Below, one piece after another: positions 5,070 through 60,726 of a stretch of 64,000 bases of DNA. The stretch is from Anaerolineae bacterium (GTDB lineage Bacteria > Chloroflexota > Anaerolineae > UBA1429): the NCBI GenBank assembly GCA_050949345.1, contig JBMNFN010000001.1, positions 620,786-684,785 of the forward strand, written 5' to 3'. The position numbers and the translations under genes are program-made. Position 1 is the first letter of the stretch; each line of letters begins with the position of its first letter. Below the pieces are notes generated by a model. That model did no database searches. It saw only the letters and a program-made list of their open reading frames with translations, and was not told where the DNA came from.

Positions 5070-5140
5070 GGCCCGCGCGATTGGCGACAGGTGGAGGCTG
5101 TTCTATAATCGCGCCAGTACAGCACCTTCACGGGAGTGCC

Positions 5141-15161: not shown

Positions 15162-16615
<1,454 letters not shown>

Positions 16616-16631
<16 letters not shown>

Positions 16632-17887
16632 TCGGCCTGTTCACTCTGCAGTCTGTGCAACAATTCCCCGGCCCGGGGAACCAATAGAATACCCTCGTCC
16701 TCCCGGTTCGCATACTGGGCCAAATCCATGCTGGCAGGATCCCGGTACCCCAGGTTGACCCGCTCGCAACGCTCCCGCGGCACACCGGTGGCCAGCACCA
16801 CCTCCACGCGGGGACGCTCCACGCCGCTCTCATAGGTGCCGGCGCCCTTGACCAGGGTGGCGTGGGTCATGACGCCTCGGGACTCGCCCGCAAAGCGATC
16901 CATGTGCGCCAGGTAATAATCGCGCACGTGGTAGCCGATGCGGTCGAGCGCCGCACCGTGGGTGTAGGATATCTCGTCGATATGCGGGGCATAGATGATC
17001 ACCGTGCCGCCATCGGCCACCACGGGCTCTACCTTGTACATGCCCTTGCTGGCCGTCCAGATGTCATCGTACAGATCGGGCATCACCGATACGACCGTAT
17101 GAAAGGGATGGGGCATCCAGCGGATGTTGACGCGGGCCGAGATCTCGGCGGCGGCGGCCTGCGCCAGCTCTGGCGTCCCCCAGAACAATCCCGCCAGATC
17201 ATGCTCGCCCACCACCGCCATGGCAAAGCAGGAGCGCTCCCTCGGGATGAGCGCGGCGGCGCGATTCAACAGCTCGCGCATGGGCGTATTCTGGCGCCCG
17301 ATGGTCCAACGGTTGGTGAGCAGCGCCCCGAGCCAATGGCTCAGATCGATCACCCCAGGACCGCTGATGCCGGGGAAAAAGTACTTGTTGCCCCCGGAAA
17401 AGCCCACCACCTCGTGCGGAAACACCGGTCCACAGATCAACAGGTGGTCATAGTCCAGGACCCGTCGGTTGATCTCAACCGGCAGCGCCTCGTGCAGCAG
17501 GCCGTTGCTGAGCGCGGCGATGTCCTCCGCAGGAATGGTGCCCAACAACGTCAGATCGTGAACATAGTCATGGTTATAGAGGCCCACCCGACCATAGGTG
17601 CTGGCGCGCTCCTCGAGGGTGATGCCCAAGTGTCGGCACAGGCGCTCCTCGTCCAGCGGGGCGTGGGTGCCCAGGGCGATGAGCACATCCAGCGCAGCCA
17701 CCTGTGGCAGGAGGGCATCGGCAAGCGTACGGAAACAGAGCGCCGTGGGGCCGCTGCGCGTGGTGTCAGGCAGAATGAGCAGCACGCGCCGATTGCGCAG
17801 GCCGGCCTGCTCCACGCCCTGCCTCAGGATACCCTGGGTCTCTTCCAGCGTAAGAAAGCGGTTGCTGAAACCTTTGCCCACCAGCAT
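16616..17887 (-). CDS. LarA-family (nickel-pincer-nucleotide dependent) 2-hydroxyacid racemase/epimerase homologue
   Basis: The N-terminal LarA_N (DUF2088) region has LILPDTTRSGP. The block FPHEVVGFSGGNKYFFPG matches the LarA GFSGGRK motif that carries the cofactor-bearing lysine. About 423 aa, the same as LarA. Confidence 0.7.
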
Positions 17888-17891
17888 GTTG

Positions 17892-18809
17892 TTACCTCTC
17901 CCAGGGCGGTCTGCTGGGCAGCGCCTCTTGAAAAGCTACCAGCAACCCCGCCTCATAGGCAGCGGTATAGCCGCCATCGAAAAAGCGCCCGAGCGCCTCT
18001 TTTTCAAAGAGACTCCAACTGGCATCCTCCGCGCCCGGGACGATTGGGAAGAACCGAGCGCCGACAGCACGGGCAGCGGCCACATCGCCCAGGGCATCGC
18101 CGATCATCAATACGTGCCCCGCAGGGTAGGAGGCAGCGCCCGCCTTGACCAAATGCTCCTGCTTGGTGCCCATCTCCTGCCCATTGATGGCACTCACGAA
18201 TTGGTCAATGCCGTGCTCTCGCCACTCTCTCTCCAGCGCTTCGGTTGGAGTCTGCGAAACGACCACCACTTGCGCTTCGCTGGCCATCCTTTCAAGGCTG
18301 GTTCGAGCCTGGCCAAAGGGAGAGATCCCGTGAACGATCTCCTCAATGGCCCGGTTCACCGCTTCGCTCCATTCCAGAGCCCGTTCCAGCTCGGGATCCC
18401 CTGTCTGGGCGATGCGGCGAACCAGCGTGAGGTTGCTGGGAGCGACCTCCTCCTGTACCAGGGCACGCACCGCCGGCAGGGGCGGGACGCAAAAGCCACG
18501 CGCCTGAACGGCGGGCATGGCGGCCAACAGATCCAACGTTTTGACGAGGGCCGGCCAGCGGTTCGTGCCCCTCCAGGCACTGTATAGATTGACGAACTCG
18601 GCGGCCTGGCGCGCATAGCGAGACACGGCCTGCAGACCCCAATAACGGATGGTGGCCGGAATAAAGCACTCTTTGTGTTTGCACTCCATGGTGTCAAACA
18701 CGCAGCCATCCGAGTCGACGCCCACCAGGAAGGAGTGGGCAGCTGAATTCTCTGGCTGGCTGTGCGGCACGCCCAAGGTTGCCGCGCCGCTGGCGCTAGA
18801 TGCCGGCAT
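17892..18809 (-). CDS. HAD-superfamily hydrolase (phosphatase)
   Basis: HAD motif I LVGVDSDGCVFDT and motif IV IGDALGDV. The start is uncertain among ATG 18809, 18827 and 18848; all of them overlap the SDR 3' end. Confidence 0.6.
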   Translation of the reverse strand: MPASSASGAATLGVPHSQPENSAAHSFLVGVDSDGCVFDTMECKHKECFIPATIRYWGLQAVSRYARQAAEFVNLYSAWRGTNRWPALVKTLDLLAAMPAVQARGFCVPPLPAVRALVQEEVAPSNLTLVRRIAQTGDPELERALEWSEAVNRAIEEIVHGISPFGQARTSLERMASEAQVVVVSQTPTEALEREWREHGIDQFVSAINGQEMGTKQEHLVKAGAASYPAGHVLMIGDALGDVAAARAVGARFFPIVPGAEDASWSLFEKEALGRFFDGGYTAAYEAGLLVAFQEALPSRPPWER

Positions 18810-19626
18810 AGGCCGTGAGGCCGCCATCGACGACGATGGTGGCGCCATGCACAAAACTCGCCGCCGGGGAAAGCAGCCAGAGCACCGCACCCACCAACTC
18901 ATCCGGGCGACCGTAGCGTCCCAGTGGAGTATGGGACACGATGGCGTGTCCGCGTGGTGTAGCCTCGCCCGTCTCCCGGTCCAGCAGCAGATAGCGATTC
19001 TGCTCGGTCAGCACGAAACCGGGAGCGATGGCATTGACCCGCACGGCCGGGCCCACCTCCTGTGAGTAGTACACTGCCAGCCAGCGGGTAAGGCTGATGA
19101 CCGCTGCCTTGGCTGCATTATAGGCCGGCACCCGTGTCATCGGACGTTTGCCCGACACGGAGGCGATGTTCACGATGGCCCCACTCTGGTTGGCAGCAAA
19201 CACCCGGCCGAACACCTGGCTGGGCACCCACATCGCCAGGCAATTCAAGTCCATCACGCTGCTGAAAGCCTCCACGGGCATGTCGAACAGCGACGCATCG
19301 GGACCAGTGGTGGCCGCAGCCCGGTTGCCGCCGGCGCCGTTGACCAGGCCCGTCACCGTGCCGTAGCGTGCGAGCACCTGCTCCAGCGCACTTTCCACCG
19401 ACACGCGATCCAGCGCATCACAAGGCACCGCCAGTGCATCACCTCCCTGGGCTATGATCGCCTCGGCGCTGCTCTGGGCGGCCTCTGGCCGAATATCGAG
19501 GATGGCGAGCCTGGCTCCTGCGCGCGCCAGCCCACTGGCGATGGCCGAGCCCAGCACCCCGCCACCACCGGTCACCGCCACAACCTGACCCCTCAGAGAG
19601 AACAGCTCCTCAAGATATTCCGTCAT
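18796..19626 (-). CDS. Short-chain dehydrogenase/reductase (SDR) family oxidoreductase
   Basis: TGGGGVLGSAIA glycine-rich NAD(P) motif, the catalytic YNAAKAA (YxxxK), and NAIAPG. Confidence 0.85.
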   Translation of the reverse strand: MTEYLEELFSLRGQVVAVTGGGGVLGSAIASGLARAGARLAILDIRPEAAQSSAEAIIAQGGDALAVPCDALDRVSVESALEQVLARYGTVTGLVNGAGGNRAAATTGPDASLFDMPVEAFSSVMDLNCLAMWVPSQVFGRVFAANQSGAIVNIASVSGKRPMTRVPAYNAAKAAVISLTRWLAVYYSQEVGPAVRVNAIAPGFVLTEQNRYLLLDRETGEATPRGHAIVSHTPLGRYGRPDELVGAVLWLLSPAASFVHGATIVVDGGLTAYAGI

Positions 19627-19643
19627 GGTGCATCGACGCTCCT

Positions 19644-21155
19644 TCAGGCAAAGGGCTGAATGTGTCGCATAAAGTGGACTTCCAAGCCCCTGTAGTGCGC
19701 CTCTTCGTGGGCGTTGAGCAGGGAAAAAATACGCTCACTAAAGAGGGAGGGGTGTCCCTGGTCACCACTCAACACCACACCAAAGGCCACATGCAGCACC
19801 TGGCGCGCATCAAAATCGCTCAGCAGCGAGGGCAGGTCGCTGTCCGGCACGCTGGCGGGATCGGGAACACGCTTCAGCTCTGCTGAAACGTGATAGGAGC
19901 GACGCTCGTACTCGTATCGTTCCGCAGACAAAGCCAGGATCTCGCGAAAGAGAGCCGGCTCGGACTGGGCGACTACCCGCAGTGCCTCGAGATAGCTGGT
20001 GCCCGCCGTCTTCAGGTGAACCAGGTCGCCCGCGTGGCGTGCCGCAATGGGATAGATGGAAAACTTGTCCGAGCCCGAGTGCAGGCTGAGCTTGTAGGGT
20101 CCCAGCGCCCGGGCGATGGCCACGTGCCAGGCCCAGTCCTTCTCAAAAGTGCCCAGGTCGCCGATATAGTCCACGCCTTTTTCAAAGCGCCCCACATACC
20201 GCGGGGCCAGAGACACCCAGTCGACACCCAGCCTCTGCAACTCTCTGGCGATGAACCAGTGCTCCGCGGGACGGGTTGGGGTATCGGTTTCATCCACCGA
20301 TACCTCCACCTCCCAGGGGGCGCCGGCACGCACCCTGCGCAGATGCTCATACAGATCACGGATGTGCGCCAACGCCGCGCCATACTTGCAGGCGGCCCGC
20401 AAAAAGCCCAGCTCGTCCAGCGCGATCACCCGACGCCCGGAGAGCGCCCAGCTGTTGCCCACGTAGCGACGGTAGAGCTCGCCCGCTGTGACACCCAACT
20501 CCCCCCAGGGGAGCGCGGCGTACTTGTCCCGGAGCACCGGCAACGCATCGCTCTCGGCGTCGTTGTCCACCTGATCGCGAGGATCAAAGGTGTACATGAT
20601 ATAGCCGGCAGCGACGCAGCGATCGATATCCTCGGTGGTCTTGAGATGATCGGCGTCGGCCCCGTGCGGTGCACGCCAGCCCTCCTGCAACACACCAAAA
20701 GTGGCGTCATCCAGCACCTGCTCCGGCGTTCGACCGGTGCGCTCCATCTCACGTATGGACTGTTGGGCATACACGGGGACGATCCCCTGTACATGCCGCA
20801 TGGCACGAATGTGTCCGGGCGTTGCCAGACCCAGGCGATCGCCGAGCCCGGCGCTCTTGTGCACACCCACCAGCGAGGGAGCGGTAAAGGGAAGCAGCTG
20901 ACGCAGGCGGCAGGCGTTGGCGTGATCCAACGGCCCCAGGCCCAACCAGTGGGCCTCGTTCTGCCACAGACAGCGCTCCAGCACCACATTCAGGCCCAGC
21001 GGATCGCCGCTGCGACCGAGGACCGCCAGACGTCGGCCCTCCGGACGCCGCACGAGAAACAAGGTGTGTTCCCCTACCGCGTTCAGCGACTGCGGATAGA
21101 CCTCCCCACCCGCGATCGCTGCCAATTGTCGAGTCGTAGCGCTCTGTTCTGCCAT
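19644..21155 (-). CDS. UxaE-like putative tagaturonate/fructuronate epimerase (TIM-barrel sugar-acid epimerase family)
   Basis: About 500 aa with features I associate with the UxaE family (HLKTAGTSYLEAL, DPRDQVD); the family assignment is from memory rather than a search. Start placed at MAEQ, which has an AAGGGGTGA Shine-Dalgarno. Confidence 0.4.
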   Translation of the reverse strand: MAEQSATTRQLAAIAGGEVYPQSLNAVGEHTLFLVRRPEGRRLAVLGRSGDPLGLNVVLERCLWQNEAHWLGLGPLDHANACRLRQLLPFTAPSLVGVHKSAGLGDRLGLATPGHIRAMRHVQGIVPVYAQQSIREMERTGRTPEQVLDDATFGVLQEGWRAPHGADADHLKTTEDIDRCVAAGYIMYTFDPRDQVDNDAESDALPVLRDKYAALPWGELGVTAGELYRRYVGNSWALSGRRVIALDELGFLRAACKYGAALAHIRDLYEHLRRVRAGAPWEVEVSVDETDTPTRPAEHWFIARELQRLGVDWVSLAPRYVGRFEKGVDYIGDLGTFEKDWAWHVAIARALGPYKLSLHSGSDKFSIYPIAARHAGDLVHLKTAGTSYLEALRVVAQSEPALFREILALSAERYEYERRSYHVSAELKRVPDPASVPDSDLPSLLSDFDARQVLHVAFGVVLSGDQGHPSLFSERIFSLLNAHEEAHYRGLEVHFMRHIQPFA

Positions 21156-21312
21156 CAGCGTCGTCACCCCTTTGTCCCTGGGTTTGCGGATGCAGCGCAA
21201 GGGTATCTGGAACACGGAGCGCTGTCAACGACGTGCACGCCACGAGAAACCCTTGCGCACGAGGGAAGCCAGGGGTATCATGGTACGCGAGGCTATCCGC
21301 AGGAGGTGTGTC

Positions 21313-22539
21313 ATGACTGACTTGCCCCGTCCCATCGTGCGCGCTGTGCATTGCGAGCATACAGCCTCCGATGAGGCTGTGTATCAGGCGCTGGTGCGCG
21401 CCAACGAGCCGCTGAGCGCCGCCTGGAAGCGCCTCGCCAACGCACGCCGCATCACCATCAAGATGAACCAGGCCTGGGATCCGGCCCGGCGCCCCCTCTA
21501 CCTCGGCCGCTATCAGGAACTGGTAGATCCTGCGGTGGCGCGGGCGGTTCTCCGCCTGCTGCGCGAGCGCACCACTGCCGAGCTGCGCTGCGTCGAGATC
21601 GCCACCATGATCCGCGGCCGGGACGATTTGAGCTTTGACCAGGCACAGAACCTGCGGGACGTGTTCGCCGAGTTTGGCGTGGTGATCGAGAATGGGAACA
21701 CCGCCCCCCATGGCCTGTACCCGGTGCCCGGTGGAGGCAGCATGTTCCGCCAGTACCAGCTGCCCAGCATTGCTGTCGAGACCGATGCCTTTGTGACCGT
21801 TCAAAAGATAAAGAACCACAAGTTTATGGGCGTGACCCTCGGGCTCAAGAACTTGTTTGGCCTGCCACCCTACGATCCGTATGGCCGGCCGCGGCAATAC
21901 TTTCACCATCTCGTGCGCCTGCCCCACGTGCTGGTGGACCTGGGGCGTATCATCGATCCGGCCCTCACCATCCTGGATGGACTCACCTGCCAGTCGGGCG
22001 GCGAGTGGGGTGGCGATGGACTGGTGGGCGACACGCTGCTGGCGGGCGATCAGGTCATTGCCACCGATGCGGTGGCCACCCACCTGATGGGGCACGATCC
22101 TCTCGGGGACTGGCCAAACCAGCCCTTTGTGCGCGATCGCAATGCGTTGCTGCTGGCGCATCAGTCCGGCTTTGGAACCGCCTGCTTGAACGAGATCGAC
22201 TGGACCTCGGAGGTGCAGGCGCCCATCGGCCAGTTCCTGACCACGGTGACCGATCCGCCGGAGCGGGTTCTGGCCTGGCGACGCTCCACCTGCGAACAGG
22301 CGCTCTACTATCGCGACCACATCGAGTCCTTTGTTGAGCGTTATGCCGGCCAATGGGTGTTGATCCAGAACAACCAGGTGGTGTGGCAGAGCTCCGAGCC
22401 CGCCCTGCCCGCCAGCCGGCGCATCCTGGCCGGTGGAGACGAGGACGCCGCCCTCTTTTTCAAGTACGTCGATCCAGAAGAGGCAGAGGGCGAGCACTGG
22501 GAGGTCTACGAGCGCGAGCTGGAGGCGATGGGCCGGTAG
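21313..22539 (+). CDS. DUF362 domain protein (paralog A)
   Basis: KNHKFMGVTLGLKNLFG and C-terminal ATHLMGHDP blocks are shared with the second DUF362 protein at 57367. AGGAGG Shine-Dalgarno 6 nt before ATG 21313. Confidence 0.65.
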   Translation: MTDLPRPIVRAVHCEHTASDEAVYQALVRANEPLSAAWKRLANARRITIKMNQAWDPARRPLYLGRYQELVDPAVARAVLRLLRERTTAELRCVEIATMIRGRDDLSFDQAQNLRDVFAEFGVVIENGNTAPHGLYPVPGGGSMFRQYQLPSIAVETDAFVTVQKIKNHKFMGVTLGLKNLFGLPPYDPYGRPRQYFHHLVRLPHVLVDLGRIIDPALTILDGLTCQSGGEWGGDGLVGDTLLAGDQVIATDAVATHLMGHDPLGDWPNQPFVRDRNALLLAHQSGFGTACLNEIDWTSEVQAPIGQFLTTVTDPPERVLAWRRSTCEQALYYRDHIESFVERYAGQWVLIQNNQVVWQSSEPALPASRRILAGGDEDAALFFKYVDPEEAEGEHWEVYERELEAMGR

Positions 22540-22561
22540 TAAACCGACAGGGGGACAGCAC

Positions 22562-24034
22562 GTGAGCAGAGACAAGCGACCCAATATCCTCATCTTTCAG
22601 GTGGATCAGGAGCAGGGCCAGGTGACCATGCCCGGCCATCCTTGTCGGACGCCCAATGCTGACCGATTGGCTGCAGAAGGCGTACGCTTTACCCGGGCAT
22701 ACACCATCGCTGCTCACTGCTGCCCGTCCCGCGCCTCGTTCATGTCGGGGCTGAACCCCAGCGGCCACGGCATCTATAACAATGTGCTCAATCGCGCCGC
22801 CATCCACACCTCGTTGAACGCCGGTGTGACGCTGTGGAGCGAGGTACTGGCAGAATCCGGCTACAACCTGGCCTACTCGGGCAAGTGGCACGTTTGCGCG
22901 GACCGGGGCCCGGCAGACGTGGGCTGGAAAGACTATGGGGCTACCTCTGTGGGCGGACGTGATCATCACGGCACCACCTGGGAGGACTGGCGTCTACGGA
23001 CTGCCCAACCGCAAGAGGAAGGGCCGCGTCAACGGGGCACGCTGTTGCGGCCCGGCTGGGGTACCTTGCGCCTTTACGGCACGGGTGGTACCACGCCCGA
23101 GGCAGAACCGTTTACAGAGGGGGATTATCGCATCGTTCAGAACGGGCTGCAGGCGTTGCGTGATCTCACCGCTCAAGATTCGCCCTGGTGCCTGTACATC
23201 GGCCCTAACGGCCCCCACGATCCCTACATCATCCCCGAGCACTATGCCAGGATGTATGATCCTGCCAACGTGCCGCTGCCTCCCAACTGGCACGACGACC
23301 TGCAGGACAAGCCCCGGGTCTATCAGCGGCAGCGCCATTTGTGGAACCAGCTGGGCGAGGACGAGTATCGCGAGGCCATCGCCCATTACTGGGGCTACTG
23401 CACCATGCAGGATGACCTGCTGGGTCTGGTGCTGGACGCCCTGGACCAGACAGGTCAGGCGGACAACACCCTGGTGCTGTTTACCTCTGACCACGGCGAC
23501 TATGCAGGCGCCCACGGCCTGTTCGCCAAGGGCGTAGCCGCCTTTGACGAATGTTATCGCGTGCCCTGGATCATGCGCTGGCCGGCGGGGGTTCGAAATC
23601 CCGGGCGCGAGGTCAGCAGCCTGATTACGCATCTTGATATCGCGGAGACTTTGACCGAGCTGGCAGGGACACGCATGCCCGCAGCAACCAGCGGCAGCAG
23701 CCTGCTTCCCTGGTTGCGCGATGACCCCTCCGCTACTGCCGCTGAGGCTGTCTTTAACCAGTTCAACGGCGTAGAGCTGTACTATTCTCAGCGCATGGTG
23801 CGTACCCAACGCTGGGTGTTCGTCCACAATGGGTTTGACGTCGACGAGCTGTACGACCTGGCGACGGATCCCTGGTGCCTCACCAATCGCGCGGAGGATC
23901 CTGCCTGTCGCGCCGTGGTCAAGGACCTGAGCCGTTTGATGTGGCGCCAGGCTTGCGAGCAGGACGACATTGTCGGAAACCCGTACATGACGGTGGCCCT
24001 GGCTCCTTTTGGCCCCATGGTTGCCTTTGAGTGA
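22562..24034 (+). CDS. Cys-type sulfatase (formylglycine-dependent arylsulfatase family)
   Basis: RPNILIFQVDQ N-terminus and the sulfatase signature AHCCPSRASFMSGLNP (C-x-P-S-R). GTG start with a GGGGGA Shine-Dalgarno, 22 nt after the DUF362 stop. Confidence 0.8.
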   Translation: MSRDKRPNILIFQVDQEQGQVTMPGHPCRTPNADRLAAEGVRFTRAYTIAAHCCPSRASFMSGLNPSGHGIYNNVLNRAAIHTSLNAGVTLWSEVLAESGYNLAYSGKWHVCADRGPADVGWKDYGATSVGGRDHHGTTWEDWRLRTAQPQEEGPRQRGTLLRPGWGTLRLYGTGGTTPEAEPFTEGDYRIVQNGLQALRDLTAQDSPWCLYIGPNGPHDPYIIPEHYARMYDPANVPLPPNWHDDLQDKPRVYQRQRHLWNQLGEDEYREAIAHYWGYCTMQDDLLGLVLDALDQTGQADNTLVLFTSDHGDYAGAHGLFAKGVAAFDECYRVPWIMRWPAGVRNPGREVSSLITHLDIAETLTELAGTRMPAATSGSSLLPWLRDDPSATAAEAVFNQFNGVELYYSQRMVRTQRWVFVHNGFDVDELYDLATDPWCLTNRAEDPACRAVVKDLSRLMWRQACEQDDIVGNPYMTVALAPFGPMVAFE

Positions 24035-24051: not shown

Positions 24052-25185
24052 CTAGATGTCGGCCACACCGCCATCGGGCCAGAAGGAGCCCGGATAGTCG
24101 CGGGGCTGATACGGCATCTTGTCGATGGCGTCCCAATTCAGCGTGACGCCGAGGCCCGGCGCCTGGGGCAGCTGTACGTATCCATCGACGATGGACAGCG
24201 GCTCAACCAGCACCTGATCTCGCCAGGGTTGGTTCTCTGCGTACTCCAGGATGGTAAAGCCCGGCAGGCAGGCTGCCAGCTGCAGGGAAGCGGCGGTGGC
24301 TACCGGTCCATTGGGGTTGTGCGGCGCCACAGACAGGTGCCAGGTCTCTGCCATGGCAGCGATCTTGAGTGTCTCGAAAATGCCCCCGTCATGGCACACA
24401 TCGGGCTGCACGATGTCGACACACTGTCGCTCCAACAGCTCGCGATAGCCCCACTTGGTAAAGAGGCGCTCGCCGGTGGCCAGTGGCACCCCGGCTTCGG
24501 CCCGCGAGACACGCATCAACTCGTCGACATTCTCGGGCGGTACCGGTTCCTCCAAAAACGCCAGATCCCATGGCTTGAGCACGTGCAGCAGCCGGATGGC
24601 CTGTCCAGCGGTGAGTCTCCCGTGGGCATCCATCATGACTTGTACGTCCTGGCCCACGGCACCGCGCAGCACGCCCAGGCGCTCATCGATGGCATCCAAC
24701 CAGCGTCTCTCATTGGCATAGAGCTCAGGTCCGGGGCAACCGATCTTGAGCGCGCCCCAGCCTCGGTCCACCAACTCCTTGGCGCGAGCGGCCAGGTCCT
24801 CTGGTGTGGCGCCGCCACAGTGCGTGTAGAGTTGGATGCGATCTCGACAGGCACCGCCCAACAGCCGGTAGACCGGCACGCCGAGATCCTTCCCGGCAAT
24901 GTCCCAGAGTGCCTGTTCGATGCCGCTGAGGGCGCTGTCGAGGACGATGCCCCCTCGCCAAAAGCCATGGCGATACAGGATCTGCCAGTTGTGCTCGATG
25001 CGGCGAGCGTCGCGGCCCAGCAGCGGTCGCGAGAGATCCGCTACCGCCGAGCAGACTGCCTGCTCCTTGCCCTCTACGCTGGCCTCACCGACTCCGGTGA
25101 TGCCTGCATCAGTCTCTACCACCACGAACACCCAGGTCTGCCTGCCTCCATAGGCCAGGCGGGTCGTAACGGACGTGATCTGCAT
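24052..25185 (-). CDS. Enolase-superfamily dehydratase, mannonate/galactonate dehydratase-like (paralog 1)
   Basis: MQITSVTTRL .. WVFVVVETDAGITGVGEA N-terminal capping domain and an MR/MLE barrel (KIGCPGP, MMDAHGRL, EEP, DIVQPD). GGAGG Shine-Dalgarno before ATG 25185. Confidence 0.75.
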   Translation of the reverse strand: MQITSVTTRLAYGGRQTWVFVVVETDAGITGVGEASVEGKEQAVCSAVADLSRPLLGRDARRIEHNWQILYRHGFWRGGIVLDSALSGIEQALWDIAGKDLGVPVYRLLGGACRDRIQLYTHCGGATPEDLAARAKELVDRGWGALKIGCPGPELYANERRWLDAIDERLGVLRGAVGQDVQVMMDAHGRLTAGQAIRLLHVLKPWDLAFLEEPVPPENVDELMRVSRAEAGVPLATGERLFTKWGYRELLERQCVDIVQPDVCHDGGIFETLKIAAMAETWHLSVAPHNPNGPVATAASLQLAACLPGFTILEYAENQPWRDQVLVEPLSIVDGYVQLPQAPGLGVTLNWDAIDKMPYQPRDYPGSFWPDGGVADI

Positions 25186-25252
25186 CTCAACCTCCTGCGG
25201 GACCGCTGGTGCTGTCTGCCTCCGACGCAGCCGATCGCGCTCCACGGCCGGC

Positions 25253-25281
25253 TTGGTGCAAACGGCAGCAGCATCTACAAT
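25253..25281 (+). promoter_or_regulatory. Candidate promoter (TTGGTG-17-TACAAT) for the M42-LarC1-GT-GH-ManD operon
   Basis: -35 at 25253-25258 and -10 TACAAT at 25276-25281, 33 nt upstream of ATG 25314, with a GAGGTG Shine-Dalgarno. Confidence 0.4.
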
Positions 25282-25313
25282 ACGCGAGAATGGATACACG
25301 CGCGAGGTGTTGC

Positions 25314-26414
25314 ATGATTGGGACAGCCACCATCGACCAAACCTATCTGATGAAATCGCTCGTCGCGTTGCTGGAGATGCCCAGCCCCACGGGCTATCAC
25401 CGTCCGATCATCGCCTGGCTGGAGGGCACCATCGCCGCGCTCGGCATCTCCGGGTTGCAGATGGTCAAGACGCGCAAGGGCGCCCTGTGCGTCACCCTGC
25501 CCGGCACCTCGCCGCAGGGCACCCGCGCCCTCTCCGGACACATCGACACGCTGGGCGCCATGGTGCGGGCGATCAAACCCAATGGGCGATTGATGCTGAC
25601 CCAGCTGGGCGGCTATGCCTGGAATGCTGTAGAGAGCGAAAACGTGACGGTATACGCCGTTTCTAACGGGCGCACGGTACGGGGGACGATCCAGACGGTA
25701 AGCCCCAGCGTGCACACGGGCCCGGATGTCTATGACGGCAAGCGCAATGACGAGCGCATGGAGGTGCGGCTGGATGCCCGCACCAGCTGTACAGCGGACA
25801 CCCGTGCGCTGGGCATCGACGTGGGGGATTTCGTGTTTTTCGATCCAAGGGTCGAGTGCACCGATACTGGCTATATCAAGAGTCGTCATCTCGATGACAA
25901 GGCCGGCGTGGCAGTGATGCTGGCCGTGTTGCAGGCCCTGGCCGCGTGCGGTGGGGCGCCGGCGGTCCGCACCTCCTTTTACTTTAGCAACTATGAGGAG
26001 GTGGGCCATGGCGCTGCCACGGGCCTGCCTGCGGACCTGCAGGATCTGCTGGTGATCGATATGGCGGCCAGCACCACCGGCGAGCATCAGAATTCGGACG
26101 AGTACTCGGTCGGGATCTGCGCCAAAGACTCCTCGGGTCCCTATGACCTGGAGCTGCGCCGCGAGCTGGTGGCGCTGGCGCAGCAGCACCAGATCCCCTA
26201 TCGTATCGACACCTATCCCCGCTACGGTTCCGACGGCAGTGCGCTGTTGCGTGCCGGCGGCGATGTGCGCGTGGGACTCATCGGCCCCGGGCTGGACGCC
26301 AGCCATGCCTATGAACGCACCCACGTGGACAGCCTCATGGCCACCGCGCGCCTGGCGCTGGCCTATGTTCAGAGCACCTGGCAGGGTACTGATGTAAAGG
26401 ATGGCTTGCCGTGA
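25314..26414 (+). CDS. M42 family peptidase (FrvX/glutamyl aminopeptidase-like)
   Basis: M42 organisation with metal-ligand blocks (SGHIDTLG, HLDDKAG, NYEEVGHGAA); about 366 aa. Confidence 0.7.
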   Translation: MIGTATIDQTYLMKSLVALLEMPSPTGYHRPIIAWLEGTIAALGISGLQMVKTRKGALCVTLPGTSPQGTRALSGHIDTLGAMVRAIKPNGRLMLTQLGGYAWNAVESENVTVYAVSNGRTVRGTIQTVSPSVHTGPDVYDGKRNDERMEVRLDARTSCTADTRALGIDVGDFVFFDPRVECTDTGYIKSRHLDDKAGVAVMLAVLQALAACGGAPAVRTSFYFSNYEEVGHGAATGLPADLQDLLVIDMAASTTGEHQNSDEYSVGICAKDSSGPYDLELRRELVALAQQHQIPYRIDTYPRYGSDGSALLRAGGDVRVGLIGPGLDASHAYERTHVDSLMATARLALAYVQSTWQGTDVKDGLP

Positions 26415-27256
26415 CCAAGATCGCTTACCTGGACTGTTTTTCCGGCGCCGCTGGCGACATGATCCTCGGATCGTTGCTGGACGCTGGCTACCCTCTGGAG
26501 GATCTGCGCCGAGGATTGGCTGCCCTCAAGGTGGAGGGTTACGAGCTGACCCTGGCCCCTGTGCGCCAGCACGGCATCACGGGCAGCAAGTTCGATGTCA
26601 TCGATCACGCTCAAGAGCAACCGGTTCGCAATCTCTCGCTGGTAGGAGAAATCCTGCAGAACACAGATCTGCCGGCCGATGTGATTGAGAAAAGCCTGCG
26701 TGTGTTTACGCGGTTGGGCGAGGCAGAAGCCAAGGTGCACGGTGTGACACTGGATGAGGTCCACTTTCATGAGGTGGGTGCTGTAGACGCCCTAGTGGAC
26801 ATTGTGGGCACCTGCCTGGCGCTGCACGACCTGGGCATCGAACGGGTTTACGCATCGGCCTTGCCCCTGGGCAGCGGCACCGTTCGCACGGACCACGGCC
26901 TGCTGCCGGTGCCCGCCCCGGCGACGCTGGCATTGCTGACAGCTGCCGGCGCTCCCACCATCCCCAGCGACGCCCGGGGGGAACTGGTTACGCCCACGGG
27001 GGCTGCGTTGCTCACCACGCTGGCAACCTTTGAACGCCCCGCCATGTGCGTGCAGCAGGTGGGATATGGTTTCGGCAGTCGCGTCATGCCCTGGGCCAAC
27101 ATGCTGCGGGTGTGGATTGGTGAGGCGGTTGCCCACGTGCCCCCTGCAGCCCACGCACAGGTGCATCCGTCGCCGCACGGGCATCCTCACGACCACGGGC
27201 ATTCCCATCCGCACCCCCACCACCATGGTCCCGACAGCGAGGGTGAGCAGGAGTGA
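26411..27256 (+). CDS. LarC N-terminal domain protein (LarC1-like nickel-binding domain of the NPN nickel insertase) with a His-rich tail
   Basis: MTKIAYLDCFSGAAGDMILGSLLDAG is the canonical LarC/DUF111 N-terminus. The C-terminal tail is HPSPHGHPHDHGHSHPHPHHHG. There is a 4-nt ATGA overlap with the M42 gene, and no LarC2-like ORF follows. Confidence 0.75.
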   Translation: MTKIAYLDCFSGAAGDMILGSLLDAGYPLEDLRRGLAALKVEGYELTLAPVRQHGITGSKFDVIDHAQEQPVRNLSLVGEILQNTDLPADVIEKSLRVFTRLGEAEAKVHGVTLDEVHFHEVGAVDALVDIVGTCLALHDLGIERVYASALPLGSGTVRTDHGLLPVPAPATLALLTAAGAPTIPSDARGELVTPTGAALLTTLATFERPAMCVQQVGYGFGSRVMPWANMLRVWIGEAVAHVPPAAHAQVHPSPHGHPHDHGHSHPHPHHHGPDSEGEQE

Positions 27257-27323: not shown

Positions 27324-28421
27324 ATGCAGATCCTGGCGCTTGAACCCTACTGTACCGGCTCCCACCGCGACTGGCTCGAGGGCTATGCCCGGGCCAGTCG
27401 CCACCAGGTGGTGACCCTCACCATGCCGGGACAGTTCTGGAAGTGGCGCATGTACGGCGGAGCCGTTACGCTGGCGAGGCGTCTGAGCGAACTGGACACA
27501 CGGCCGGACCTGATTCTGGCTACCAGCATGCTGGATGTGGCCACCTTTCTGGCACTCTCCCGCCAGCGCACCTGGGACATTCCAGTGGCGCTGTACATGC
27601 ACGAGAACCAGCTCACCTACCCGATGCGTCCCGGCGAAAAGCGCGACCTGCACTTTGGGCTGGTCAACTATACCTCGATGCTGGCTGCCGACCGCGTGCT
27701 GTTCAACTCTCGATTTCACCTGGAAGCCTGGTTCGACGAGCTTCCCCGCCTGCTCAAACACCATGCGGATTTCAATGAGCTGGACACCATCCCCCTGCTG
27801 CGAGGCCGCTCCGCGGTCCTGCCTCTGGGCATCGACCTCGCCAGTCTCGATCGCGCACGCCCCAGCCAGCCCCGCAGCGGCCCCTTGCTGATCCTGTGGA
27901 ACCACCGCTGGGAGTATGACAAGGATCCGGCCAGCCTGGTCCAGGCGTTGGACAGGCTGATGGATTGGGGCGGCGAGTTCGAGGTAGCCTTGCTGGGTGA
28001 GCGCTTTGTGAGCGAGCCGCCCGCCTTTGTGGAGGCACGGGAGCGCCTGGGCAGCCGCCTGGTGCACTATGGCTATGTTCCCAGCCGGCAGGCGTATGCC
28101 CGCTGGCTGTGGGAGGCGGACGTGGTGGTCAGCACCGCGATCCATGACTTTTTCGGGGCTGCAACGGTGGAGGCCATGTACTGTGAGTGCTGGCCCCTGC
28201 TGCCCAATCGGCTCGCCTACCCGGAACTGGTCCCGCCAGAGTATCACGGACGCTGCCTGTATGCCAGCCTCGATGATCTGGTGGAGCGTCTGCGCCAGGC
28301 AGCACAGGATCCCATAGCGTTGCGGCAAGGATCGACGTTGCGTTCGGCAGTTGCCCAGTATGATTGGCGAAGGATGGCACCACAATACGACGCCATCCTG
28401 GAGGAAATGGTGCGCCACTGA
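27324..28421 (+). CDS. DUF3524-type glycosyltransferase (GT-B, GTDC1-like)
   Basis: MQILALEPYCTGSHRDW is the N-terminal signature of DUF3524. The C-terminal half looks like GT1/GT4 (EAMYCECWPL). An alternative ATG at 27264 is possible. Confidence 0.55.
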   Translation: MQILALEPYCTGSHRDWLEGYARASRHQVVTLTMPGQFWKWRMYGGAVTLARRLSELDTRPDLILATSMLDVATFLALSRQRTWDIPVALYMHENQLTYPMRPGEKRDLHFGLVNYTSMLAADRVLFNSRFHLEAWFDELPRLLKHHADFNELDTIPLLRGRSAVLPLGIDLASLDRARPSQPRSGPLLILWNHRWEYDKDPASLVQALDRLMDWGGEFEVALLGERFVSEPPAFVEARERLGSRLVHYGYVPSRQAYARWLWEADVVVSTAIHDFFGAATVEAMYCECWPLLPNRLAYPELVPPEYHGRCLYASLDDLVERLRQAAQDPIALRQGSTLRSAVAQYDWRRMAPQYDAILEEMVRH

Positions 28422-28566
28422 GGCGCAAAACGGCCCTCCCTTCGTCCCCCTGGTCCCCAGTTGCCCCCTTGGTCCCCTGACAGCCCTGCCGGTGCCCTGC
28501 CTTGCGATTGACGACGAGCGGCCCCTTGCCGTATTGTTCCCAGGAGTTGCACCAAGGAGGTACAGC

Positions 28567-30558
28567 ATGCACGCTCTGCCCATGCGCCAGGTCCATCTGG
28601 ACTTTCACACCGCCGGTCAGATTTCCGATGTGGGCGCCGACTGGAGCGCCGAGGCCTTTGTCGAGACGCTCCGCAGGGCCCACGTGAATTCGATCAACCT
28701 GTTTGCACGCTGTCATCATGGTTATGTCTACTATATGCCCTCGCGCTATGCCATACATCCGGCGCTCACCTTTGACCTTCTGGGCGAGCAAGTTTCGGCC
28801 TGTCGCTCTGTGGGCATCGCCAGCCCGGTGTATATCACCGTGGGTTGGGATGAGCTGGCGGCGGCGCGGCACCCAGAGTGGCTGGAAGTCACGCCCGAGG
28901 GGGTATTGGGGCAGCACAGCCCGCTGGAGGCCCGTTGGAAGAAATTGTGTCTCAACTCGCCCTATCTGGACTATGTCCTGGACCAGGCGCGGGAATTGAT
29001 CGAGCATCTGGGCGGCGCGGTCGACGGACTGTGGTACGACATTCTGCATCAGGGCGAGTGCGTGTGTGGCTATTGCCGGCGCGACATGCTGCGCCAGGGG
29101 CTGGACCCTGCCCGAGCGGAGGATCGGCAGGCCTTTGCCGCCTGCGTGCGTAACCGGGCCCGCCAGCGCCTGTATGAGGACGGCGAGGCTCGCGTGCCGG
29201 GCACGATGACCTTTTTCAATTCGGGGCATGTGGGCTACGACCAGACGATCCAAAGCTTGCCTTACTTTACACACTTTGAGCTCGAGTCTCTGCCGAGCAC
29301 GGGCCAGTGGGGCTACAGCCACTATCCCATCAGCGTGCGGTATGTGCGGACCCTGGGCAAGCCGCACCTGGGGATGACGGGCAAGTTTCACACCTCCTGG
29401 GGAGATTTTTCCTCACTCAAGAATCAGGCCGCACTCGAGTTCGAGTGCTTTCAGATGCTCGCCAACGGAGCGGCAGTGTGCATCGGCGACCAGCTGCACC
29501 CCCGGGGCAGACTCAACCCGCCCACCTATGACCTGATCGGCCGCGTGTACGAGCAGGTCGAGGCCAAAGAGCCCTGGTGTATCGACGCCGCGCCGCAGGC
29601 CGAGATCGCCGTGTTCAACGTCGAAGCGGTGGGCACAGAGGATGGCAGGGTCGACTCCAGCAACGCCGGTGCGTTGCGCATGCTCATGGAGGAGCATCAG
29701 CAGTTTGACTTTATCGACCAGCGTGCCGATTGGAGCCGCTACAAGGTCATCATCTTCCCCGACAAGGTTCCCTTTGACGAGGCGCTGGCCGCCCGGGTAC
29801 GCCGCTTCCTGCAGGGAGAGGGACGGGTCATTGCCAGCTACCGCGCTGGTTTGACGCCCGCAGGCGACCGTTTCGCCCTGCCCGAGTTTGGGCTGAACGT
29901 GATCGGCGAGGCACCCAACCATCCAGACTATCTCCGGGCTGCCGCCGAGCTGCGCGCCGACCTGCCGGATACCGAGTTGGTGATGTACGAGCGTGGCCTG
30001 GAGACGAGGGCACTGGAGGGCACCAGGGTGCTGGCCACGGTAACGGGTCCCTACTTTAATCGGCAGTGGGATCACTTTTGCTCCCATCGGCAGACCCCGA
30101 TGGACCCGAACAACGTTGCCCCCTACCCTGCCATCACTCAGTCGGCGGATGGCAAGGTGATCTATTTCGCGCACCCCATCATGGCGGGGTATCGATTGCA
30201 GGCGCCTCTCTGGTACAAGCGACTCCTGGCGGCGGCCCTGGGGCTGGCACTGCCCGAGCCAATGGTGCTCAGCGATGCACCCAGCAGCGCACAGGTGACC
30301 GTCACCCGGCAAGCCGACCAGGCGCGGACCATCGTACACCTGCTGCACTATGTGCCCGAGCGGCGCGGCCTCGAGTTTGATACCATCGAGGATGTTATTC
30401 CGCTGCACCAGGTGCGCGTGGGCCTCAGGGCAGCCGACCGCCCTGCCCGCCTGTATCTGGCGCCGGACGGCCAGGACTTGCCCTTTGAGTACGCCGATGG
30501 GCGTGTATGGTGCACCGTGCCCCGTGTGGATGGCCACGCCATGCTGGTGATCGAGTAG
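28567..30558 (+). CDS. Putative glycoside hydrolase (GHL6-like TIM barrel plus beta-galactosidase-trimerisation-like domain)
   Basis: VHLDFHT, CHHGYVYY and NSPYLDYV blocks suggest a hypothetical-glycosyl-hydrolase TIM barrel; the C-terminal part resembles Glyco_hydro_42M. AAGGAGG Shine-Dalgarno before ATG 28567. Family assignment is tentative. Confidence 0.4.
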   Translation: MHALPMRQVHLDFHTAGQISDVGADWSAEAFVETLRRAHVNSINLFARCHHGYVYYMPSRYAIHPALTFDLLGEQVSACRSVGIASPVYITVGWDELAAARHPEWLEVTPEGVLGQHSPLEARWKKLCLNSPYLDYVLDQARELIEHLGGAVDGLWYDILHQGECVCGYCRRDMLRQGLDPARAEDRQAFAACVRNRARQRLYEDGEARVPGTMTFFNSGHVGYDQTIQSLPYFTHFELESLPSTGQWGYSHYPISVRYVRTLGKPHLGMTGKFHTSWGDFSSLKNQAALEFECFQMLANGAAVCIGDQLHPRGRLNPPTYDLIGRVYEQVEAKEPWCIDAAPQAEIAVFNVEAVGTEDGRVDSSNAGALRMLMEEHQQFDFIDQRADWSRYKVIIFPDKVPFDEALAARVRRFLQGEGRVIASYRAGLTPAGDRFALPEFGLNVIGEAPNHPDYLRAAAELRADLPDTELVMYERGLETRALEGTRVLATVTGPYFNRQWDHFCSHRQTPMDPNNVAPYPAITQSADGKVIYFAHPIMAGYRLQAPLWYKRLLAAALGLALPEPMVLSDAPSSAQVTVTRQADQARTIVHLLHYVPERRGLEFDTIEDVIPLHQVRVGLRAADRPARLYLAPDGQDLPFEYADGRVWCTVPRVDGHAMLVIE

Positions 30559-31768: not shown

Positions 31769-31787
31769 CGCTAACCGAGGAATGAGC

Positions 31788-57366: not shown

Positions 57367-58473
57367 ATGACTACTCGCGCCAGGGTAGCGGTCTTGAAGA
57401 CAGAGCCGGAGCGGGTCTTGGCCGACTATGACCGGCTGTTGGGCCTGGCCCAGGTTGAGCGCTACCTCCCCGCCGGCGATACGGTTATCCTCAAGGACAA
57501 CATCTCGTGGCACTTTCCGTTTCCCAGCGCCAACACCACTCCCTGGCAGCTGGAAGGAACCATTCTGGCCTTGCAGCGCCGCGGCTATATGCAGCAGGTG
57601 TGCGTCCAGAACAAGACCGTGGTCACCAATGCCTTCAAGGGCGAAGACCTCAACAACTATGTGCCGATTTTCAGGCGCTATAACATCCCAGTGCTGTACA
57701 ACTTTAAGGATTCGGACATCAAGTGGAAGGTGTACGCGCCAAAAGCGCGGATGAACGCACTGGACCGGGTCTATCCTGAGGGTATCCCCATGCCCGAGTA
57801 TTTCAAGGGCAAAAGCATCGTGCACCTGCCCACGGTCAAGTGCCACATCTATACCACCACCACGGGCGCGATGAAGAACGCCTTTGGCGGCCTGCTGAAC
57901 ACCAACCGCCACTATACGCACTCCTGGATCCACGAGACGTTGGTGGATCTGCTGGCGATCCAAAAAGAGATCCACACCGGACTGTTCGCCGTGATGGACG
58001 GCACCACAGCAGGCAACGGCACGGGTCCGCGCGTGATGAAGCCCGAGCCCAAGAACACGATCCTTGCCAGCGGTGACCAGGTGGCTATCGACGCCATCGC
58101 AGCCCAGCTGATGGGCTTTGACCCGATGAGCATCGACTATATCCGCATGGCCCACGAACAGGGTCTGGGCGTAGGCGATCCGAGAGAGATCGAGGTGGTG
58201 GGCGACGACATCGCCGGCGAAAACTGGCACTTTCACGTGGGGGTCAATCTGCACAGAGCTTTGGGCTGGCTCTCATGGTACGGTCCCACACGTTTTCTGC
58301 AGAAACTGCTCTTTCACACACCGCTGGTGCATGCCATGAGCATGGTGTCAGAGGTATACCACGATTACTATCGCTGGCCCCTGCGAGAGCGGCGTATCTA
58401 TGAGCGCTGGCGCGAGAGCGAGCCCTGGGGAAGACTGTTCGATCGCTACCTGCGTGAGGGACATCTGGCATGA
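57367..58473 (+). CDS. DUF362 domain protein (paralog B)
   Basis: VKCHIYTTTTGAMKNAFGG and C-terminal AAQLMGFDP blocks are colinear with the paralog at 21313. Confidence 0.65.
   Translation: MTTRARVAVLKTEPERVLADYDRLLGLAQVERYLPAGDTVILKDNISWHFPFPSANTTPWQLEGTILALQRRGYMQQVCVQNKTVVTNAFKGEDLNNYVPIFRRYNIPVLYNFKDSDIKWKVYAPKARMNALDRVYPEGIPMPEYFKGKSIVHLPTVKCHIYTTTTGAMKNAFGGLLNTNRHYTHSWIHETLVDLLAIQKEIHTGLFAVMDGTTAGNGTGPRVMKPEPKNTILASGDQVAIDAIAAQLMGFDPMSIDYIRMAHEQGLGVGDPREIEVVGDDIAGENWHFHVGVNLHRALGWLSWYGPTRFLQKLLFHTPLVHAMSMVSEVYHDYYRWPLRERRIYERWRESEPWGRLFDRYLREGHLA

Positions 58474-58526: not shown

Positions 58527-60726
<2,200 letters not shown>

Follow-up and report, generated by a model that had tools for sequence, protein, structure and literature searches.

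A DUF362 protein with a LarA-type fold encoded beside a Cys-type sulfatase in an Anaerolineae sugar-acid island: a possible isomerase

Introduction

DUF362 is a large protein family without an assigned function, and a member encoded directly upstream of a formylglycine-type sulfatase raises the question of whether it serves the sulfatase itself or takes part in the metabolism that surrounds it. We addressed this question in a 64,000-nucleotide stretch of DNA from an Anaerolineae bacterium (the window), which encodes two DUF362 proteins, here called DUF362-A and DUF362-B. A sequence-only reading had proposed that DUF362-A is co-transcribed with the sulfatase, that it could act on that enzyme or on its substrate, and that DUF362 might be related in fold to the N-terminal domain of LarA.

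Results

The two genes and their junction comprise the following features:

21301-21306, + strand: Shine-Dalgarno AGGAGG of DUF362-A, 6 nt 5' of the ATG at 21313 (read from the sequence)
21313-22539, + strand: DUF362-A, 408 aa; PF04015 match at E 1.3e-24, 87.8 bits against a cut-off of 24
22540-22561, + strand: spacer between DUF362-A and the sulfatase, 22 nt, with GGGGGA at 22550-22555 (read from the sequence)
22562-24034, + strand: Cys-type (formylglycine) S1 sulfatase, 490 aa; PF00884 8e-42, SGSH_C 3e-20
22718..22732, + strand: formylglycine motif C53-C-P-S-R57 of the sulfatase (read from the translation)

DUF362-A ends in a TAG stop codon (22537-22539) and the sulfatase begins with a GTG at 22562, which, together with the GGGGGA element, bears out the earlier description of a CCPSR sulfatase that starts 22 nt downstream behind its own Shine-Dalgarno. 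No terminator-like site was found between the two genes, and the promoter and terminator scan was otherwise uninformative. Given the shared strand, the 22-nt gap free of such a site and the closeness of most orthologous pairs, the genes are probably co-transcribed, as had been proposed.

The sulfatase sequence AHCCPSRASFMSG yields C53-x-P-x-R57, the Cys-type formylglycine motif. The enzyme is cytoplasmic, with no signal peptide and with orthologs that begin at the same MxxxRPNILIFQ; among solved structures it comes nearest to 6PT4, an exo-2S-iota-carrageenan sulfatase (6e-48), with choline sulfatases next, and it falls under every NCBIfam equivalog cut-off. Pfam scans of all open reading frames that exceed 200 aa and have coding-like GC3, together with one antisense frame that does not look coding, revealed neither FGE (PF03781) nor a radical-SAM protein of the anSME type in the window; three of the scanned frames had no clear Pfam assignment, two of them matching nothing and one giving a sub-threshold Glrx-like match. 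FGE and anSME are likewise absent from two other loci, L129 and L130. The lack of a nearby maturase gene, noticed earlier from the sequence, is thus correct for the window but carries no weight, as sulfatase-rich anaerobes commonly rely on a single unlinked anSME for all their sulfatases.

The surrounding genes form an island for hexuronate and hexonate catabolism, comprising UxaE, a mannonate oxidoreductase, a GntE-like LarA homolog, 6PGD and a galactonate dehydratase, and both LarA and LarC1 genes lie in the neighborhood, as the sequence-only reading had noted:

16616..17887, - strand: genuine LarA homolog, GntE-like (hexonate 2-epimerase); PDB 4NAR at 6e-58
18796..19626, - strand: SDR, D-mannonate oxidoreductase-like; NCBIfam NF006132 317 bits against a cut-off of 281
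19644..21215, - strand: UxaE (tagaturonate/fructuronate epimerase); PF16257 2.5e-148; divergent from DUF362-A
24052..25299, - strand: enolase-superfamily sugar-acid dehydratase, galactonate dehydratase-like; MR_MLE_N and MR_MLE_C; convergent with the sulfatase
26411..27256, + strand: LarC1 (nickel insertion, NPN biosynthesis) with a His-rich tail; PF01969 3.5e-85; TIGR00299 213 bits against a cut-off of 90

The LarA homolog carries D41, R44, H106, H158, K168 and H184, and its best NCBIfam match is NPN_18_hexonate, yet under the cut-off; 4NAR is GntE2, a D-gluconate 2-epimerase (PMC7583248). The dehydratase scores 363 bits against the NCBIfam galactonate dehydratase model (cut-off 311) and matches PDB 3RR1 at 1e-75, along with ManD-family entries, and its orthologs (63-81% identity) follow the DUF362-A/sulfatase pair in L001-L006 and DUF362-A alone in L007. 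In two related islands (L088 and L091), which lack both DUF362-A and the dehydratase, sulfatases 67% identical to this one lie next to the same UxaE operon. We also considered whether DUF362-A supplies a uronate isomerase that the UxaE operon lacks, and rejected this because the operons of these two islands are intact without it.

Eleven loci have a DUF362-A with an identity of 60% or more, and in nine of them an orthologous sulfatase follows directly downstream. Over all DUF362-A-like loci this holds for 13 of 77 and fails for 64, and only three of 29 related sulfatases have DUF362-A upstream (26 do not); the adjacency is conserved in close orthologs but not in the wider set. The gap in orthologous pairs is 27-137 nt at most loci and reaches ~1 kb in two. 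Because independent genomes repeat the pair, with flanking genes of at least five different kinds (UxaE side, RmlD-GT2-GT2, UxuA-RraA, GDPD and URO-D-like), the adjacency is more than chance: it is real but clade-limited, a two-gene module of one Anaerolineae clade, often placed beside a galactonate/mannonate-type dehydratase. Within 5 kb of DUF362-A-like genes we found MR_MLE proteins (28 of 80 loci), DHDPS-like aldolases (20/80), UxuA (6/80) and RraA-like proteins (5/80), with at least one such sugar-acid enzyme in 41 of the 80; sugar-acid dehydratases and aldolases are commoner neighbors of these genes than the sulfatase is. Tandem DUF362-A paralogs occur in 23 loci. Lar biosynthesis genes showed no enrichment near DUF362-A loci outside window-type synteny, the only setting in which LarC1 was found.

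At the protein level, DUF362-A combines a LarA_N-like DUF362 domain (about residues 1-300) with a small conserved C-terminal domain (about residues 316-408) that is weakly DUF5678-like. The ~300-aa core has the fold of the LarA N-domain, in agreement with the relatedness suggested earlier, and DUF362-B shows the same pattern. The paralog and the candidate site in each protein are as follows:

57367-58473, + strand: DUF362-B, 368 aa; PF04015 match at 2e-22, 80.7 bits against a cut-off of 24
21817..21909, + strand: candidate cofactor/active-site block of DUF362-A, H169-KFMG-V-T175-L-G-L-K179-N-LFG...R194-x-Y196-x-H198-H199, invariant in 104/104 A-like copies
57844..57921, + strand: candidate block of DUF362-B, H160...K170-N-AFG...R181-x-Y-x-H185 (from the A/B alignment)

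DUF362-B lies between an alpha/beta hydrolase (56382-57344, - strand) and pyrG (58527-60377, - strand), and the two proteins share the K-N-x-F-G and LMG-x-DP blocks (LKNLFG and LMGHDP in DUF362-A, MKNAFG and LMGFDP in DUF362-B), both as originally described. It is a distant, monocistronic paralog, only 28% identical to DUF362-A over 143 aa, very conserved within Anaerolineae and ending in a helical tail where DUF362-A has its DUF5678-like domain. Its neighbors (URO-D-like, MBL, YdjC, RidA and alpha/beta hydrolase proteins) differ among genomes and include no conserved partner. DUF362-B shares the fold of DUF362-A but stands apart from it as a highly conserved protein with no link to sulfatases.

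The motif H169-x3-G-x-T-x-G-x-K179...H198/H199 is newly described and, except for H199, common to DUF362-B. Thirteen residues are invariant among the 104 A-like copies (K50, N52, K167, H169, T175, K179, N180, R194, Y196, H198, H199, D222 and D252); all but H199 are present in DUF362-B, and the residues of the DUF362-B block are invariant in 28 orthologs. Retention of 13 invariant polar residues across 50%-identical paralogs points to a catalytic site. A V-P-G-G-G-x-M-F loop, also invariant in the A-like copies, is specific to them and missing from DUF362-B, and C14 is kept in 103 of the 104.

The likeness of K-N-x-F-G to the lysine block of LarA, first noticed by inspection, recurs in profile-profile comparison: the best local hhalign alignment, a weak one (E 0.04-0.09, probability ~1%), joins exactly that block, residues 150-225 of DUF362-A, to residues 139-211 of the window's LarA homolog, with high per-column confidence over H169...K179. 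It places H169, K179 and H199 on H158, K168 and H184 of the homolog, which are H174, K184 and H200 of LarA (PMC7583248), and the His-to-Lys spacing of 10 is the same in the DUF362-A motif and in LarA. We infer that the H169/K179/H198-H199 block most likely matches the catalytic His174, the NPN-tethering Lys184 and the nickel ligand His200 of LarA. An alternative register, PH...VPGGG against PH...GFSGG (shallow A profile, 38 columns), was rejected because its His is present in only 40 of the 104 A-like copies and its loop is absent from DUF362-B.

Other elements of LarA have no equivalent. The DUF362-A positions aligned with Arg75 and Asp72 of the D-x-T-R block hold neither Arg nor Asp, the segment there reading I-K50-x-N52-Q; the position aligned with His108 falls in a variable loop without a conserved His, only H169 aligning (with His174); and the C-terminal domain with Lys298 has no counterpart. 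The Lar_N HMM (PF09861) gave no match up to E 10 to DUF362-A, DUF362-B or five A orthologs and matched the window's LarA homolog at 3.4e-18; sequence searches of solved structures with DUF362-A, DUF362-B and an A-ortholog profile returned no matches. These missing elements (R75, D72, H108, K298 and the C-terminal domain), with a residue equivalence that is statistically non-significant, count against a LarA-like chemistry.

Fe-S motifs, named beforehand as a finding that would place DUF362 in an unrelated redox family, did not appear: Pfam and sequence inspection gave no Fer4 match and no CxxCxxCxxxC or other CxxC-type cluster motif in either protein. DUF362-A has five Cys residues, none in a CxxxCxxC-type motif, and no Pfam match to FGE or radical-SAM/SPASM proteins.

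Discussion

We tentatively favor DUF362-A as a cytoplasmic isomerase or epimerase of LarA-like type that helps to break down a sulfated sugar or sugar acid, and judge this reading, taken as a whole, to fall a little short of an even chance. The LarA fold, and probably part of the LarA cofactor site, make DUF362-A more likely a sugar-acid-converting enzyme than a sulfatase-activating helper. The sulfatase would desulfate an imported sulfated sugar or sugar acid, DUF362-A would isomerize or epimerize an intermediate hydroxy acid through a transient hydride transfer like that of LarA, and the product would pass to the dehydratase and aldolase route. Candidate substrates are hexonates, hexuronates and their sulfate esters, and the fold together with the conserved His/Lys/His block, set beside the LarA cofactor site, provides a concrete, testable chemical hypothesis for a family without an assigned function.

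Several observations weigh on the other side. The window already encodes a genuine NPN epimerase, the GntE-like protein, which leaves no obvious need for a second epimerase. Adjacency to the sulfatase is not general (13/77 loci, 3/29 sulfatases), and there is no link to lar biosynthesis. Other DUF362 proteins are described as carrying fused Fe-S domains, such as 4Fe-4S ferredoxin, or CBM9/dockerin modules (PMC5742341), which poorly fit a cytoplasmic pincer-cofactor enzyme.

An unlikely but serious alternative is that the two genes are conserved neighbors without direct coupling, the real partner of DUF362-A being the dehydratase/aldolase set and the sulfatase of the hexuronate island merely lying between them in one lineage. 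DUF362-A and the galactonate dehydratase ortholog come and go together: both are absent from L088 and L091, which retain the sulfatase, the UxaE operon and M42 and, in the case of L091, LarC1 as well, and both are present without the sulfatase in L007. MR_MLE is also the commonest neighbor family (28/80), and DUF362-A so rarely precedes relatives of the sulfatase (3/29). However, DUF362-A followed by the sulfatase occurs without the dehydratase in unrelated contexts (L130, with GDPD genes, L011, L017 and L019) and in a distant DUF362-A clade (L034 and L055), on the same strand and mostly with spacers of only 27-137 nt.

Less probable still is a LarA-like scaffold that binds a different ligand, be it another metal, a nucleotide or an Fe-S partner, with a chemistry unrelated to hydride-transfer isomerization or a non-catalytic binding or regulatory role. 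The missing R75, H108 and C-terminal domain of LarA, the A-specific VPGGGxMF loop, the near-invariant C14 and the Fe-S-binding fusions reported for other DUF362 proteins (PMC5742341) are consistent with such a protein, but both window proteins lack Cys motifs for cluster binding, the 13 invariant polar residues suggest catalysis, and the genomic contexts are enzymatic pathways.

Very improbable is the suggestion that DUF362-A acts on the sulfatase itself, as a maturation factor that would turn Cys53 into formylglycine by hydride abstraction, a third route beside FGE and anSME: it has in its favor the position directly upstream of a Cys-type sulfatase, the lack of FGE and anSME in the window and in L129/L130, the ability of LarA-type chemistry to oxidize a C-H beside a heteroatom, and a third formylglycine-forming system suspected in E. 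coli (PMC8379841). Against it, no orthologous sulfatase directly follows the DUF362-A-like gene at 64 of 77 loci and no DUF362-A accompanies 26 of the 29 related sulfatases, tandem paralogs expand within catabolic clusters as is typical of substrate-diversified enzymes, a net two-electron oxidation needs an acceptor and none is evident, and the protein resembles neither FGE nor radical-SAM proteins. Maturases are, besides, usually unlinked to their sulfatases.

The isomerase reading of DUF362-A admits a bolder extension, which we regard as improbable though worth stating: DUF362 proteins, both window paralogs included, may use the nickel-pincer nucleotide (NPN), or a close relative of it, without being LarA proteins. 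NPN would be tethered by the invariant Lys of K-N-x-F-G and nickel ligated by the downstream His, and the A-type enzyme of the module would carry out a hidden-redox isomerization of the desulfated sugar acid. A lead in this direction is that the sole NCBIfam relative of both proteins is a family named after the cyanobacterial gene Npun_F2552 (NF052623); a plasmid tblastn toward that family gave only Streptomyces and Subdoligranulum matches without annotation, and literature on Npun_F2552 and newer cyanobacterial NPN work yielded nothing further. About 15% of genomes, cyanobacteria among them, make NPN without having LarA (PMC11796402), which such users would help explain. Should the cofactor assignment prove true, DUF362 would be a second family using NPN, which bears on a question recognized as open; should it fail, the analysis still shows that adjacency to the sulfatase reflects a catabolic arrangement limited to one clade rather than a novel way of maturing sulfatases.

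Among known systems, FGE (PF03781) and anSME (radical SAM/SPASM) share with DUF362-A only a position beside a Cys-type sulfatase; DUF362-A lacks their sequence and fold as well as CxxxCxxC, and its distribution does not track sulfatases. The Thermotoga-type hexuronate/hexonate pathway (UxaE, fructuronate/mannonate oxidoreductase, GntE and 6PGD) is matched by the operon divergent from DUF362-A, and is extended here by DUF362-A, the sulfatase and the galactonate dehydratase, a set missing from the related islands L088 and L091. The LarA superfamily (DUF2088, PF09861) belongs to the same Pfam clan as DUF362 (CL0471) and shares its strand-loop block of His, Gly, Ser/Thr, Gly, Lys at +10 and a His 16-20 residues later. 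Its members (LarA 5HUQ, Mar2 7S91 and GntE2 4NAR) are NPN-dependent 2-hydroxyacid racemases and epimerases that act on sugar acids and are encoded within sugar-acid gene clusters; they include sugar-acid 2-epimerases for which gluconate and mannonate are each other's product (PMC7583248, PMC11770544). Unlike LarA, the window proteins replace its C-terminal domain with a ~90-aa DUF5678-like domain (DUF362-A) or a helical tail (DUF362-B). With DUF362 at large they share the K-x-H, K-N-x-F-G and LMG-x-DP blocks, but in contrast to the fused forms they are stand-alone, cytoplasmic proteins without an Fe-S motif, signal peptide or carbohydrate-binding module, and the DUF362-A subfamily stands apart as a Chloroflexota-centered group with its own C-terminal domain and invariant VPGGG loop.

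Results

DUF362-A and the adjoining sulfatase are located in a hexuronate/hexonate catabolic island, since an operon that includes UxaE (tagaturonate/fructuronate epimerase) diverges from them on one side and, on the other, a dehydratase gene is followed by an M42 peptidase and then LarC1, a nickel-insertion gene for biosynthesis of the nickel-pincer nucleotide (NPN), the cofactor of lactate racemase LarA.

Principal features of the window
16616-17887, minus strand, GntE-like LarA homolog (nearest PDB entry 4NAR, 6e-58), in the operon divergent from DUF362-A
18796-19626, minus strand, SDR passing the NCBI D-mannonate oxidoreductase cut-off, same operon
19644-21215, minus strand, UxaE, same operon
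21301-21306, plus strand, Shine-Dalgarno AGGAGG preceding the ATG start of DUF362-A
21313-22539, plus strand, DUF362-A, 408 aa (Pfam DUF362 at 1.3e-24)
22537-22539, plus strand, TAG stop codon of DUF362-A
22562-24034, plus strand, sulfatase, 490 aa (Pfam Sulfatase at 8e-42, and SGSH_C)
24052-25299, convergent with the sulfatase, enolase-superfamily dehydratase (NCBI galactonate dehydratase, 363 bits against a cut-off of 311; PDB relatives)
26411-27256, plus strand, LarC1
57367-58473, DUF362-B (PF04015 at 2e-22), between an alpha/beta hydrolase and pyrG

The window, part of an Anaerolineae (Chloroflexota) metagenome-assembled genome, has a G+C content of 63.6%, and a protein identical to DUF362-A is on record from a genome of this kind. 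A 22 nt spacer containing GGGGGA separates the DUF362-A stop from the sulfatase GTG start (22562), and the sulfatase carries the Cys-type formylglycine motif C53-C-P-S-R57 and no signal peptide. The window sequence and Pfam confirm every detail of the gene layout described in the sequence-only reading, as well as its remark that no known maturase is visible near the sulfatase: a Pfam scan of all window ORFs >200 aa with coding-like composition revealed neither FGE nor a radical-SAM maturase. An aldehyde:ferredoxin oxidoreductase of the tungsten-enzyme family (5081-7219, plus strand; AFOR_N and AFOR_C) fits an anaerobic lifestyle, and formylglycine formation in this host would therefore be expected to proceed via an anSME encoded elsewhere.

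A genuine NPN enzyme and a gene for NPN biosynthesis, one of each, are already present in the island. The LarA homolog, whose nearest structure is GntE2, the Thermotoga NPN-dependent D-gluconate/D-mannonate 2-epimerase (4NAR; PMC7583248), retains the full LarA signature set (D41, R44, H106, H158, K168, H184). Its operon (15162-21215, minus strand), comprising 6-phosphogluconate dehydrogenase, this homolog with NPN and catalytic residues complete, a HAD hydrolase, the SDR and UxaE, constitutes a pathway of the Thermotoga type that takes hexuronate by way of mannonate and gluconate into the pentose phosphate pathway, in this case in an Anaerolineae; the window lacks a UxaC-type uronate isomerase. 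The LarC1 ORF matches Ni_insertion profile positions 1-236 of 375, thus LarC1 only, and ends with a His-rich tail, HPSPHGHPHDHGHSHPHPHHHG; the LarC2 part is absent downstream, where a QTMAN_N/GT1 glycosyltransferase follows, and neither larB nor larE lies within the window. Three enolase-superfamily (MR_MLE) paralogs inside 9 kb (24052-25299, 30575-31768 and 31719-32969, two of them adjacent) adjoin a GHL6/GH42M-like glycosidase (28351-30558).

Scanning one genome per GTDB species yielded 535 DUF362-A relatives, of which we analyzed the best 80 loci. Sulfatase orthologs directly downstream of DUF362-A copies are 55-78% identical to the window sulfatase.

Sulfatase directly downstream of DUF362-A copies, by identity to the window protein (among the best 80 of 535 relatives)
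60% or more: 9/11 loci
55-60%: 2/22 loci
Below 55%: 2/44 loci
All loci with room downstream: 13/77

The adjacency proposed earlier thus holds among close relatives but not overall, nor from the sulfatase side, where DUF362-A lies upstream in only 3/29 relatives (44-75% identical, with room upstream). Linked copies fall mostly into one paraphyletic group and one distant clade (loci L034, L055). At least five distinct gene settings flank the pair, namely the UxaE island (window, L001, L002, L129), RmlD-GT2-GT2 upstream (L003-L006, L013), UxuA and an RraA-like aldolase upstream (L034, L055), GDPD genes downstream (L130) and URO-D-like neighbors (L017, L019), a recurrence that speaks for a genuine functional connection in the linked clade. 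That the sulfatase is a mere neighbor of DUF362-A within the island seems to us rather unlikely. In two loci (L088, L091) a 67%-identical sulfatase has as neighbors a LacI-like regulator, M42 and the same UxaE-SDR-HAD-LarA operon, and in L091 LarC1 comes next; DUF362-A and the galactonate dehydratase-like gene are both missing there. In another locus (L007), no sulfatase separates DUF362-A from the dehydratase ortholog that it faces. The regulator in L091 (4834-5904, minus strand), apparently LacI-family from its sequence, fills the UxaE-sulfatase gap in relatives without DUF362-A, and the window has no regulator there.

Within 5 kb of DUF362-A-like genes at these loci (the best 80 of 535) we counted MR_MLE dehydratases (28/80 loci), DHDPS-family aldolases (20/80), sulfatases (14/80), URO-D-like proteins (14/80), MFS transporters (13/80), SDRs (11/80), MBL-fold proteins (10/80), UxuA (6/80) and RraA-like aldolases (5/80). 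In total, 41/80 loci include one or more sugar-acid dehydratases or aldolases, and tandem arrays of two or three DUF362-A-like genes occur at 23; these neighbors and tandem copies are the signature of a substrate-diversified catabolic family acting on sugar acids, not of a dedicated protein-modifying factor. One large cluster recurs at tandem genes (L031, L032, L036, L038, L043, L053, L061, L062, L069, L073), with genes in the order aldo-keto reductase, URO-D-like, MFS, two DUF362, DHDPS-like aldolase, MR_MLE, MBL-fold, fructosamine-kinase-like, ~570 aa protein, MR_MLE and glycyl-radical (PFL-like) enzyme. URO-D-like (PF01208) genes adjoin both subfamilies, recurring across L081-L086 (directly upstream of DUF362-B in L081-L083) and, within 5 kb of DUF362-A-like genes, in 14 of L001-L080. 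In four loci (L007, L014, L015, L018) a DUF362-B-like gene lies directly beside a DUF362-A-like gene; this arrangement and the many tandem A-A pairs suggest that hetero-oligomers may be the working form of DUF362 proteins.

DUF362-B is only 28% identical to DUF362-A over 143 aa, and has its fold and His/Lys/His block in common with it; their alignment bears out the shared K-N-x-F-G and LMG-x-DP blocks. Its gene is monocistronic, with relatives across Anaerolineae 70-90% identical (among the matches listed) and variable neighbors (URO-D-like and pyrG, MBL, YdjC, RidA, alpha/beta hydrolase), never a sulfatase at the loci compared.

Discussion

The fold kinship between DUF362 and LarA was known before this analysis: Pfam clan CL0471 holds both DUF362 and DUF2088 (LarA), and DUF362 sequences serve as outgroup in the Desguin laboratory's LarA tree (PMC11770544). 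Literature and sequence searches against solved structures found no structure or functional study of a DUF362 protein. Thirteen residues (K50, N52, K167, H169, T175, K179, N180, R194, Y196, H198, H199, D222 and D252) are invariant in 104 DUF362-A-like copies drawn from 80 genomes; DUF362-B has every one of them except H199, and those it has are likewise invariant among 28 B orthologs.

LarA and DUF362 blocks, aligned by eye
LarA (2YJG): EPHFFAGFSGGRKSILPGI...ANH
Window LarA homolog: FPHEVVGFSGGNKYFFPGI...LSHW
DUF362-A: KNHKFMGVTLGLKNLFGLP...YFHH
DUF362-B: KCHIYTTTTGAMKNAFGGL...YTHS

The best local hhalign match of a broadened DUF362 profile to the LarA-homolog profile (A 150-225 on 139-211) covers exactly the lysine block to which K-N-x-F-G had been likened, with high per-column confidence, yet is statistically weak (E 0.04-0.09). 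It pairs H169 with H158, K179 with K168, and H199 (beside the family-wide H198) with H184, corresponding to LarA H174 (catalytic), K184 (covalent NPN tether) and H200 (nickel ligand) (PMC11770544). An alternative register from a shallower DUF362-A profile was dropped on conservation grounds. The one new and testable result is this putative correspondence, residue by residue, with the NPN site, and it gives the finding its moderate interest.

From the fold, conserved site and genomic contexts of DUF362-A, we infer the remainder of its mechanism. It would be a LarA-like enzyme isomerizing or epimerizing a hydroxy-acid intermediate, for which sugar-acid 2-epimerases inside the LarA superfamily offer precedent (PMC7583248, PMC11770544); within the clade linked to the sulfatase, it would take the cytoplasmic sulfatase's product, or possibly that enzyme's substrate, and its own product would feed a galactonate/mannonate-type dehydratase. 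Candidate NPN use is favored by the conserved Lys/His residues and by the proximity of LarC1 and GntE, whereas the absence of R75, H108 and the C-domain, together with the lack of lar genes near other DUF362-A loci, counts against it; a LarA-like scaffold with a different ligand or chemistry is an improbable alternative. The only NCBIfam model touched by either protein is NF052623 ('Npun_F2552 family protein', named after a cyanobacterial Nostoc gene), at 4e-11 (A) and 3e-7 (B), both far below its cut-off of 500 and spanning aa 144-268 of each; cyanobacteria make NPN and lack LarA, and their NPN-using protein is not known (PMC11796402).

A maturase role for DUF362-A, acting on the sulfatase itself, would connect with the suspected third formylglycine system (PMC8379841), but the distribution data (13/77 and 3/29 adjacency) contradict it and make it very hard to credit. 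Of the sequence-only interpretation, LarA kinship and a clade-level sulfatase link are supported and the maturation system is not; our verdict is that the link is genuine but clade-limited, and catabolic.

Neither paralog carries an Fe-S cluster motif, of the kind that would place them in an unrelated redox family. Compared with LarA, DUF362-A has no counterpart of R75, D72, H108, K298 or the entire C-terminal domain, and the Lar_N HMM does not match it even at E 10. Unlike LarA, it possesses a conserved C-terminal domain of ~90 aa, weakly DUF5678-like (E 0.019), and its V-P-G-G-G-x-M-F loop is invariant and A-specific.
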